Assembly: GCA_051872775.1 (NCBI GenBank)
Contig: JBJEEE010000036.1
Coordinates: 1-43,679, forward strand
Direction of reading: 5' to 3'
From: Bacilli bacterium
Lineage (GTDB): Bacteria > Bacillota_I > Bacilli_A > ML615J-28 > CAG-313
DNA length: 43,679 nucleotides
Shown in pieces: positions 40,791 through 42,134 of the stretch. The notes beneath the pieces were generated by a model that worked only from the letters and a program-made list of their open reading frames with translations, had not been told where the DNA came from and ran no database searches. The position numbers and the translations under genes were made by a program. Position 1 is the first letter of the stretch. Every line of letters starts with the position of its first letter.

Positions 40791-42134
40791 CTACCATCCC
40801 AGCTCTTTTAGTACCTTTTCTACTACTTCACTATCTTTAATACGTTTCATTGTACTTTTACTAGTACAAAGAACACTTCTATTACCACGTCCTACGATTA
40901 AAATAGCTGTATTTTGCGAGGACTTTTCGATTGCTTCTTTAATTGCTTCTTCTCTATTTGGGATTATAACTGATGGTGTACTTTCAAGATAGAACTGTAA
41001 CTCTTGACATATCTCCATAACTGATTCACTTGCATTGTCATTTTCCGTTAAATATACAAAGTCTGCATATTTTTTCAGTAATTCACATGCATATTTTCTT
41101 GAATCATGTCTCATCTGATAGTGACGTCCTTGATTAAAAGAATTATCCCATGTGATAAATCCCGATCCAACTGATCCTACTACTACTACAATTTTTGATA
41201 TTTCTTTTTTTTCTTTTAAAGTATGTAAATATTCTAAGCTTTTTGATAAGTGCGCATCTATCTCAATTAATCTATTATTAATTCGATATTGTTCACCTCT
41301 CCCTGGCACTTTAATATTTTTAATTAATTCATTAAATTTATTTACATCTAAGACATTTAAGGCTTTAAGTGTGGTTAAAGCACATAAAAGATTTAACATA
41401 TTCTGTCTTAAATTATTTGTTGCGTATAGTTCATATATTTTGTTGTTTAATCTAACTTTAAAACTAAATCCATCATATAAATCATTAATATTTGTTAATA
41501 AGCAGTCAATATTACTTGGATTTACTCCTTTTACATTGGCAATGTAATTACTAGTAAATGTTAATTTTGGCATTTCATTTATTTTTAATAATTCATTAAA
41601 TAATTCTTTGTCATAATCACATAACCCATATACACAAGTACATGAATCATCTATATCTTTAAAAAATGATTTTTTTATTTCTACATATTCAACTTCACTA
41701 TACATTTCTAAATTATGTAAGGGATTTAGATTTGTTAGTACTCTTACGGTAAAAGGAATATCTTTTGTAAGTCCCTTAGAAATTGTACTTTCATTTACTT
41801 CTAACACTAAATACTCGGCATCATATTCAAGCGTACTTTCAATGATTTCAAGAAGACTACTATTTGAATTAAATGATATTTCCGGACTTATCGTTTTATC
41901 AAATAAACTTTCAGGAGAATCAATCATTAAACTACTATATAAAACAGATTTTTTGCCAATTAGTTTTAAGTATTGGTGTACAATATAGGCAACACTTGAT
42001 TTTCCATAACTACCGGTTATACCGATAATTTTTAATTTGTTTTTTCTTGTAGTTATTCTTTCTTTATGTTTTTTGTGAATATATTGATTACTTACTTTTT
42101 CTTTTAATTCTTTTTTTAATTTTTCTAGTTTCAT
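40791..42134 (-). CDS. Atypical MurE-like Mur ligase lacking the N-terminal domain
   Basis: P-loop GITGSYGKSS at about residue 38; LEVNES, LTNL..LH, VPGR.E, IDAH, LTEND, REEAI..AI, LIVGRG; DNPR specificity motif replaced. Confidence 0.8.
   Translation of the reverse strand: MKLEKLKKELKEKVSNQYIHKKHKERITTRKNKLKIIGITGSYGKSSVAYIVHQYLKLIGKKSVLYSSLMIDSPESLFDKTISPEISFNSNSSLLEIIESTLEYDAEYLVLEVNESTISKGLTKDIPFTVRVLTNLNPLHNLEMYSEVEYVEIKKSFFKDIDDSCTCVYGLCDYDKELFNELLKINEMPKLTFTSNYIANVKGVNPSNIDCLLTNINDLYDGFSFKVRLNNKIYELYATNNLRQNMLNLLCALTTLKALNVLDVNKFNELIKNIKVPGRGEQYRINNRLIEIDAHLSKSLEYLHTLKEKKEISKIVVVVGSVGSGFITWDNSFNQGRHYQMRHDSRKYACELLKKYADFVYLTENDNASESVMEICQELQFYLESTPSVIIPNREEAIKEAIEKSSQNTAILIVGRGNRSVLCTSKSTMKRIKDSEVVEKVLKELGW

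Follow-up and report, generated by a model that had tools for sequence, protein, structure and literature searches.

The DNA studied here is a 43,679-nucleotide contig (JBJEEE010000036.1) from a Bacilli bacterium, analysed over its whole length and called the window. The open reading frame (ORF) 40791-42134 encodes a Mur-fold ligase, previously unnamed, which lies between the gene of an immunoglobulin (Ig)-like protein and that of an RHS toxin. We use the name MurX for its product and for the clade to which it belongs. MurX is a discrete Mur-ligase subfamily in a new context, for which annotation pipelines give only 'Mur ligase family protein', and its substrate class is probably new. We tentatively propose that MurX may be an active amide ligase that joins an amine to the C-terminal Asp (rarely Glu) of the Ig-like protein encoded just upstream. 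The positions of the features are listed in Table 1.

The reading frame of MurX is open, with an ATG start and a GGAGG sequence 7 nucleotides upstream. Pfam recognises two domains in the protein, Mur_ligase_M (PF08245) in residues 39-254 (E 9.5e-15, 55.5 bits, cut-off 24) and Mur_ligase_C (PF02875) in residues 302-417 (E 2.1e-9, 38.7 bits, cut-off 28.4). There is no Pfam match in MurX for the UDP-binding N-terminal domain (PF01225), and in a joint alignment with nine MurE sequences about 100 N-terminal MurE residues have no counterpart. The murE models TIGR01085 and NF001126 top the NCBIfam list, both under their cut-offs (126.1 against 257.3 bits and 119.7 against 373 bits, respectively), and the match begins at model position 81 of 472. 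The best sequence match in the PDB is MurE from Thermotoga (4bub, E 5e-11). The AlphaFold2 (AF2) model, made with 65 aligned family members, has a mean pLDDT of 90.5 and shows a conserved N-terminal helix (residues 2-14), a disordered basic linker (residues 18-30) and then the two Mur domains; the short helix and the linker replace the lost UDP-binding domain. Residues 1-35 contain 12 Lys, 2 Arg and 2 His against 4 acidic residues. With this model, Foldseek places MurE first (4bub, E 1.8e-26), followed by chains of PAP11, the MurE-like subunit of the plastid RNA polymerase (8r6s_Q, E 7.8e-24), with MurF (~1e-17), MurT (2e-15) and MurC (~1e-15) lower. Two longer database entries (539 and 607 residues) carry unrelated N-terminal extensions, and these look like gene-calling or assembly effects.

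An earlier note, made from the DNA letters alone, had described this gene as a MurE-like ligase without the N-domain, keeping the ATP-binding and C-terminal Mur domains, with a basic stretch of about 35 residues ahead of the P-loop, altered versions of three MurE motifs and an insertion after VVGSVGSG. All of these features are present. The P-loop GITGSYGKSS occupies residues 38-47, PLHNLE (138-143) stands for (D)HLD, EIDAH is found at 290-294 and ENDNA (364-368) takes the place of DNPR. The insertion, relative to the nine MurE sequences, is 16 residues long, follows the first strand of the C-terminal domain and carries an invariant Trp.

Conservation was assessed over 65 family members with 32–60% identity to the window protein. 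T40, G41, G44 and K45 of the P-loop, E112, T134, K154, N248, G278, R279, G320, G323, W329, T363, R416 and D434 are invariant. From the MurE alignment and the literature on Mur ligases, we take K45 to be the phosphate-binding lysine, E112 the Mg-binding glutamate, K154 the carbamylated lysine, N248 the adenine-binding asparagine and G278-R279 the GR motif. At several other positions that are conserved among the nine MurE sequences MurX differs, namely the TTP loop, an Arg that follows the EVSS motif, the DNPR arginine and the GKGxE glutamate. In the amino acid site the D-N pair of DNPR remains and its Pro and Arg are lost, and GRGNR replaces GKGHE, with Glu changed to Arg. As judged from the alignment, MurX keeps every residue needed for ATP/Mg-dependent acyl-phosphate chemistry, and it has lost the MurE residues for UDP-N-acetylmuramic acid (MurNAc)-L-Ala-D-Glu and for the diamino acid, such that both substrate sites are changed. 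Positions 256, 293 and 362 were considered as specificity positions separating cassettes with PxD tails from those with GD tails; the difference is confounded with phylogeny and is given no weight.

The window genome (1.6 Mb, 114 contigs, 92% complete) contains seven Mur_ligase_M genes: two full-length MurE paralogs, MurC, MurD, MurF, a FolC-like gene and MurX. A maximum-likelihood tree of 61 rows was built with 40 MurX members (25 of the 65 aligned members were left out), nine MurE, seven MurT, one PgsB and the MurC, MurD, MurF and FolC of the genome. MurX forms a single clade with a support of 100 in the Shimodaira–Hasegawa-like approximate likelihood ratio test (SH-aLRT) and a stem length of 0.92, and it is sister to MurE with a support of 87. 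MurT is a clade of its own (support 100) apart from MurX, and PgsB and FolC are distant. The deep order is unsure, with single-row outgroups on long branches. By its sequence, the MurX clade has its origin on the MurE side of the Mur ligase superfamily. MurT_C (PF08353, DUF1727) is found neither in MurX nor in the window genome, and no neighbouring gene is GatD-like. The PgsB/CapB model TIGR04012 is not among the 15 NCBIfam matches of MurX, and FolC appears only at E 1.5e-4; in the genome TIGR04012 matches only MurE and FolC, with 35 and 28 bits.

MurX could be taken for a housekeeping MurE, or a decaying copy of one, that lies beside a toxin gene by chance, since its best family and fold matches are MurE. 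This is already contradicted, and we give it practically no probability: the two MurE paralogs lie elsewhere in the genome, MurX scores half or less of the curated cut-offs and forms a separate long-stemmed clade, its frame is open with invariant catalytic residues, and it occurs in only some of the related genomes, in up to three copies, linked to RHS genes in the cassettes examined. The view of the earlier note that the gene is a repurposed ligase, for which it had called for a search for a separate murE, a phylogeny against MurE, MurT and CapB and a check of the linkage of homologs to RHS genes, stands on each of these counts. As possible roles the note had put forward editing of lipid II or stem peptides, modification of the toxin and an ATP-dependent chaperone function, which are weighed below.

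MurX shares with MurE the ATPase and C-terminal domains, the P-loop, the glutamate that binds Mg, the (D)HLD histidine, the carbamylated lysine of Mur ligases, the adenine-binding asparagine, the GR motif and the D-N pair of the amino acid motif. It differs in having no UDP-binding domain, in its changed substrate residues, in the insertion with the invariant Trp and in being an accessory, multi-copy gene of a toxin cassette rather than part of the dcw cluster. MurT acts on lipid II; it too is a Mur-fold ligase without the UDP-binding domain and has a non-nucleotide substrate, but MurX has neither the MurT_C domain nor the GatD neighbour, falls in a separate clade and matches the MurT fold less well than that of MurE. 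PgsB/CapB and FolC also have the Mur fold without the N-domain and add amino acids to a terminal acidic residue. Within the fold they offer the closest precedent for the extension of a terminal Asp or Glu, although what they act on is a small molecule or a polymer and not a folded protein.

The MurX gene is accessory and has been found in no setting other than a mobile cassette of uncultured gut Bacilli. At least 256 relatives are present in a large protein database, and among the 120 listed most are unnamed, with a few called 'Mur ligase family protein', from metagenome-assembled genomes (MAGs) of uncultured Bacilli or 'Acholeplasmatales'. The gene occurs in 23 of 61 related genomes, with up to three copies in each. 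A MurX profile run against 399 genomes of the class scores at least 447 bits in 23 of them (20 in the order of the window genome), and housekeeping MurE reaches at most 155 bits. Searching genome contigs with the family alignment gave, among the matches listed, seven true MurX members (33–52% identity) in 79 loci; the single MurX protein as query gave no matches to genome contigs. The hosts of the MurX records among the matches listed are MAGs of uncultured Bacilli and Erysipelotrichales from human, deer, goat and other guts. A phage origin was considered and set aside: IMG/VR holds only two distant matches (25–30% identity) and phage records three (24–26%).

We examined 56 cassettes: 47 from other genomes, eight further ones and that of the window. 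In 46 of the 47, MurX is followed by a large ORF with at most one small ORF between the two (the last contig ends 243 nucleotides past MurX), and the same order is seen in all of the eight. An RHS profile match is present in 39 of the 47 cassettes. Most of the others are cut by contig ends; among the misses, the ORF of locus L041 has a Pfam RHS_repeat match and that of L189 has the conserved RHS N-terminus. The order of the cassette is a regulator and a small transmembrane (TM)/coiled-coil protein, neither always present, then usually a holin and an Ig-like protein, and then MurX, RHS toxin and immunity gene. The toxin-operon setting described in the earlier note is real, and the linkage of homologs to RHS genes, also raised there, holds across all 56.

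The protein encoded just upstream of MurX has a constrained C-terminus, a point absent from that note. The ORF ends in Asp or Glu in 55 of the 56 cassettes (46 of the 47, the window and eight of eight), compared with 70 of 455 other ORFs of the same loci; 3.3% of these 455 end in Asp. In 40 sequences anchored at the C-terminus, position -1 carries 4.04 bits, Ser at -6 carries 2.66 and Pro at -3 carries 2.41, and the rest of the last 30 positions carry 2.1 or less. The tail motif is S-x-x-P-x-D in the clade closer to the window and x-G-D or P-G-E in the divergent clade; hhalign found no link between the N-domains that the two clades have in their upstream proteins. In the AF2 model of the window protein the last strand covers residues 353-364, and residues 365-372, the free tail, have no secondary structure. 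The terminal codons over 37 junctions are GAT (26), GAC (9) and GAA (2), and in 27 of these junctions the ribosome-binding site of MurX lies in a spacer past the upstream stop. Where Ig-like genes occur as tandem pairs, the distal copies end in Asp, Asp and Asn, and at least one copy of each pair ends in Asp. Four complete relatives of the Ig-like protein are not followed by MurX, and only one of them ends in Asp. The protein of L180, where the holin is followed directly by RHS, ends in YYVGV, that of L181 in RYEKN and that of L202 in WINDL. The association of MurX with Asp holds in three of these four natural experiments.

MurE activates the carboxylate of a terminal D-Glu, and the known Mur-fold enzymes all work in this manner, coupling an amine to the activated terminal carboxylate of a small substrate. 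We favour, tentatively, the C-terminus of the upstream protein as the substrate because the MurE-derived chemistry appears intact, the nucleotide handle is gone, the acceptor site has been rebuilt and the upstream product ends in a constrained Asp. MurX would phosphorylate the terminal carboxylate of the tail with ATP and then join the amine. The MurE pocket retains its D-N pair but has other residues in place of the DNPR Arg and the GKGHE Glu, and the incoming amine would therefore probably be a free amino acid. The modification of the tail would mature the Ig-like protein as an accessory of the RHS toxin, which it would accompany, target or anchor. A more specific version, in which either an amino acid like that of a stem peptide or a lysine of RHS is attached to the terminal Asp, we regard as rather doubtful. 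PafA with Pup, RimK with S6 and tubulin tyrosine ligase serve us as a working analogy only, in that an ATP-activated terminal Glu or Asp on a flexible tail is joined to an amine. Their folds (glutamine-synthetase-like and ATP-grasp) are unrelated to that of MurX and no homology is claimed.

Several observations weigh against a ligase for the protein C-terminus. We know of no Mur-fold enzyme that acts on a protein end. At L026 the adjacent upstream copy ends in Ala; a second copy, one gene further upstream, ends in Asp. In 10 loci of the divergent clade MurX starts 1–4 nucleotides after the upstream stop and the final codons GGA GAx resemble a ribosome-binding site, and therefore Asp or Glu could be forced at the DNA level there. 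The Ig-like protein of L179 ends in SPVD and is followed by RHS without MurX or a holin, in a genome (96% complete) that has no MurX match; the terminal Asp can therefore persist, or serve another purpose, in the absence of the enzyme. The cassettes are also kin, so that the counts given above are not independent and are presented as counts rather than as a test. A complex prediction that covered MurX, residues 1-95 of the Ig-like protein and residues 1-68 of RHS gave a score of 0.00 (mark 0.32), which is no verdict on these partners and does not bear on the tail. In view of the counter-examples we keep the proposal tentative.

Two irregular loci were seen among the relatives. In L078 (G405:C5) a 318-residue MurX-like fragment, a 115-residue ORF with one TM segment and a 409-residue protein ending in SSSGD lie upstream of the full MurX, which may be a partial tandem duplication of the module. 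A reduced cassette, with the Ig-like gene and then RHS and with no holin or MurX, occurs in the genus of the window genome in L179 (G005:C8) and L183 (G004:C4), where it sits among housekeeping genes (pseudouridine synthase).

MurX and RHS are strictly adjacent, with tight or overlapping stop/start junctions in most loci, and a change of MurX clade goes along with a change in RHS N-terminal type. With PAP11 among the best fold matches, this would suit a chaperone, adaptor or assembly factor for RHS in which ATP binding works as a switch and not for ligation, by analogy with PAP11, a structural subunit of its polymerase. We consider such a role improbable: a pure scaffold would not need the full catalytic set that is invariant over 65 sequences, three loci have a holin gene between MurX and RHS and, as weak evidence, no MurX-RHS fusion was found among proteins of 784–2235 residues.

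At their N-termini the RHS proteins carry a conserved peptide of 20 residues (MDxSKINQTEL), in which position 5 is frequently Lys, and the first RHS repeat comes next. This peptide, together with the linkage of the two genes in the cassettes examined, would fit an enzyme that modifies RHS itself, either at a side-chain or terminal carboxylate of its conserved shell or of the N-terminal peptide, or by placing the Ig-like tail on an RHS lysine in a manner similar to pupylation. However, residues 1-68 of RHS contain no invariant Lys, Asp or Glu (M1, N23, G27, S53 and G66 are near-invariant), the RHS N-termini of the divergent clade show no common motif, and the kept D-N pocket would point to a free amino acid rather than to a protein side chain. 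Modification of RHS seems to us improbable.

A Hol44 holin gene occupies the same position in 21 of the first 32 loci (iterated search), in the closer clade. In L037, L076, L077 and L079 it is replaced by a Holin_LLH-type gene, over the cut-off in L037 and L079 only and located between MurX and RHS in three of the four. Since two unrelated holin families are used, the holin function can be argued to matter. A protein of 91–108 residues that has a single TM segment at the N-terminus and a coiled coil at the C-terminus (…DIGYIKACVDRVEKNL…) is encoded just upstream of the holin in L022, L024, L029, L032, L033, L035, L036, L039, L040 and L051. It matches no Pfam family and may be a partner or regulator of the holin; in the window its position would fall past the contig end. 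A suspected resemblance of this protein (95–105 residues) to XhlA was not confirmed by Pfam. Further upstream lie proteins of 110–255 residues whose C-terminal ends match sigma-70 region 4, with scores that pass the Pfam cut-off in L026 (two proteins), L035 and L051 and fall short of it in several other loci. The arrangement may resemble that of a TcdR/UviA-type sigma factor, holin and toxin in clostridia. In L029 the RHS gene is followed by Imm44.

Neither RHS nor the Ig-like protein of the window has a hydrophobic N-terminus. Holin-dependent exit of both is likely, as far as their sequences tell, because they have no signal peptide. Pfam recognised no peptidoglycan hydrolase or endolysin remnant among the window ORFs and about 100 neighbouring ORFs of the other loci, a set that does not cover every ORF. 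In place of an endolysin, MurX might edit the wall precursor by adding a residue to lipid II or to a free or recycled stem peptide; the added residue would block or alter cross-linking, and the holin would then release the 180–240 kDa RHS protein through the weakened wall, or the wall would be marked. Several points are consistent with this. MurX is sister to MurE and keeps the D-N pair of the amino acid pocket, its loss of the N-domain parallels that of MurT, a lipid II enzyme, and its basic amphipathic N-terminus could sit on the membrane. The cassettes scanned combine holins with no recognised hydrolase. Dependence on a holin for release has been described both for RHS-containing Tc toxins and for clostridial toxins (PMC10847048, PMC12485765). 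On the other hand, MurX has lost the residues with which MurE holds the stem dipeptide (the TTP loop and a conserved Arg), which weakens plain stem-peptide editing; a cytoplasmic enzyme would alter the wall slowly, through new synthesis only; some cassettes, such as L180, have a holin without MurX; and the near-invariant terminal Asp of the neighbouring protein is left unexplained. Overall, we judge wall editing to be unlikely. The tentative assignment of MurX as a ligase for that terminal Asp is the one that we carry forward.

Table 1. Positions of the MurX cassette and its neighbours in the window, with sigma-factor-like genes of three related loci
Feature	Position	Strand	Evidence or remark
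Holin, Hol44 family, 92 residues, two hydrophobic segments	43249..43527	-	PF16079 39 bits (cut-off 29.2); PHROG 1129 holin E 3e-11
Ig-like accessory protein, 372 residues	42147..43265	-	Pfam aBig_2 PF20578 E 5.5e-17; AF2 pLDDT 92.2
Free C-terminal tail FSSTTPND of the Ig-like protein, with terminal Asp; candidate ligase substrate	42150..42173	-
MurX, MurE-derived Mur-fold ligase without N-domain, 447 residues	40791..42134	-	Pfam, NCBIfam, PDB, AF2, tree
MurX P-loop GITGSYGKS, residues 38-46	41997..42023	-	T40, G41, G44, K45 invariant in 65 members
RHS gene, first 68 codons: 20-residue N-terminal peptide, then first RHS repeat	40583..40786	-	no hydrophobic stretch
IS3-family insertion, ~1.7 kb	38882..40578	.	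Pfam HTH_Tnp_1 and rve
IS3 orfA	39805-40506	-
IS3 orfB	38930-39781	-
RHS remainder: RHS repeats, RHS-associated core, Gly-rich hydrophobic C-terminal domain	34164..38881	-	TIGR03696 61 bits (cut-off 32.5); RHS_repeat weak
ORF of 180 residues overlapping the RHS stop, two hydrophobic segments/TM	33653..34195	-	no Pfam family
Array of orphan toxin-end and immunity-like ORFs downstream of RHS	30128..33181	-	matches to other loci
Sigma-70 region-4 proteins	L026:12028-12843; L035:2284-2931; L051:11001-11642

On the minus strand, the cassette of the window reads holin, Ig-like protein, MurX, start of RHS, an IS3 element, remainder of RHS, the 180-residue ORF and the orphan array. The contig ends at 43679, 150 nucleotides upstream of the holin, which is the first visible gene of the cassette. 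The G+C content is 25–26% in the cassette region and 30–34% in the housekeeping part of the window. The Ig-like protein consists of a conserved N-terminal domain of about 90 residues, two aBig_2 Ig domains and a C-terminal beta domain, and Foldseek matched it only with strings of Ig domains. Since the N-domain is conserved and the Ig and C-terminal parts vary, the protein may be a binding subunit that the toxin can exchange. A likeness of its N-domain to the N-terminus of phage tail fibres is unsupported; there is no phage match and only sub-threshold PHROG and Atlas hits.

RHS starts 4 nucleotides beyond the MurX stop and is split after about codon 68 by the IS3 element, an interruption that the earlier note did not contain. 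The inverted repeats of the element (38887-38927 and 40540-40580) are 41 nucleotides long and 85% complementary. DNA contigs from two pig-gut runs of different studies (X1 and X2) join 38881 to 40579 and skip 1697 bases. Pig-gut metagenomes therefore also contain the RHS gene in uninterrupted form, which makes the insertion strain-specific and recent. The last 200 residues of RHS (34164-34760) contain 13.5% Gly and two hydrophobic segments and match no Pfam family, and this composition suggests a membrane-active toxin. The ORF that overlaps the RHS stop is, by its position, presumed to encode the immunity protein. In the array that follows, 32555-33181 matches the C-terminal end of the RHS protein of L032 (9e-102) and 31857-32537 matches the ORF after it (4e-120), so the two are a toxin-end/immunity pair that is in use in another genome and a silent spare here. 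The ORF at 30982-31533 is an RHS-core fragment matching the RHS cores of many loci. With an RHS core, a variable C-terminal end, a downstream immunity gene and orphan modules, the locus is an RHS polymorphic toxin system.

Contigs of an RNA-library run (X15) match 41742-41954 in MurX with one mismatch and 42635-42946 in the Ig-like gene with two mismatches; as DNA can occur in RNA libraries, this is a weak hint of transcription at best. In the RNA runs, most of the small covered shares fall on the IS3 element, and stretches without cover carry no weight. PADLOC gave chance-level matches only on the window.

Outside the cassette, positions 139-13417 of the window contain three GHL10 glycosyl-hydrolase-like genes, an M19 dipeptidase, a PIG-L deacetylase, a beta-lactamase-fold protein and a LacI regulator. 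This cluster stands beside the only MurC-type ligase of the genome (12158-13417) and looks like a locus for turnover or recycling of cell-wall sugars and peptides. The MurF-like gene of the genome (G000:C88:59528-60085) has a 512-residue frame of which the first ~150 residues are strongly hydrophobic. Such a start, with several putative TM segments, is unusual for MurF, and the start of the frame is putative.

Several papers describe holin-dependent release of large toxins without signal peptides, namely the RHS-containing Tc toxin of Yersinia entomophaga and the Clostridioides difficile toxins with TcdE, TcdL and TcdR (PMC10847048, PMC12485765, PMC9527704, PMC13284979). Type 10 secretion loci, the TcdR-TcdE-TcdL set of C. 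difficile and the Tc lysis cassette of Y. entomophaga have a large toxin without signal peptide beside a phage-type holin, as is seen here; Tc toxins also contain an RHS cocoon, and small sigma-70 region-4 proteins occur in several loci related to the window too. Among the features of a type 10-like locus, the window has a phage-type holin scoring over its cut-off and a cargo without signal peptide, and it has no recognised hydrolase. The MurX cassette is unlike the known holin-release loci in that no endolysin or remnant was recognised in the ORFs scanned and in that it has a Mur-fold ligase and an Ig-like protein in addition. Its hosts are MAGs of Gram-positive gut commensals, and its cargo is a polymorphic RHS toxin with immunity genes. 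A search of full-text literature, with supplements and subscription journals outside its scope, gave nothing that links a Mur ligase with RHS toxins, holins or a protein C-terminal substrate. In the passages searched of two comparative-genomic papers on polymorphic toxins (PMC3482391, PMC9424270), Mur ligases and holins are not mentioned.

The cassette occurs in many uncultured Bacilli from the guts of pigs, ruminants and people. It combines RHS toxins with a holin, an Ig-like protein and a Mur-fold ligase that is, by its sequence, catalytically intact and has lost the nucleotide handle, and it touches the question of how very large Gram-positive RHS toxins without a signal peptide, LXG or PAAR are released and delivered. 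Should MurX turn out to edit wall precursors, its enzyme activity would stand in for an endolysin. Modification of the terminal Asp of the Ig-like protein would instead give the Mur ligase fold its first protein substrate and would add a new step to the maturation of Gram-positive RHS toxins. A stem-peptide-like end could be accepted by wall transpeptidases, giving sortase-independent covalent attachment of the released protein to the wall of the producer or of the target, and attachment to an RHS lysine would give a pupylation-like conjugate. Mur-ligase chemistry would then extend from wall precursors to proteins.

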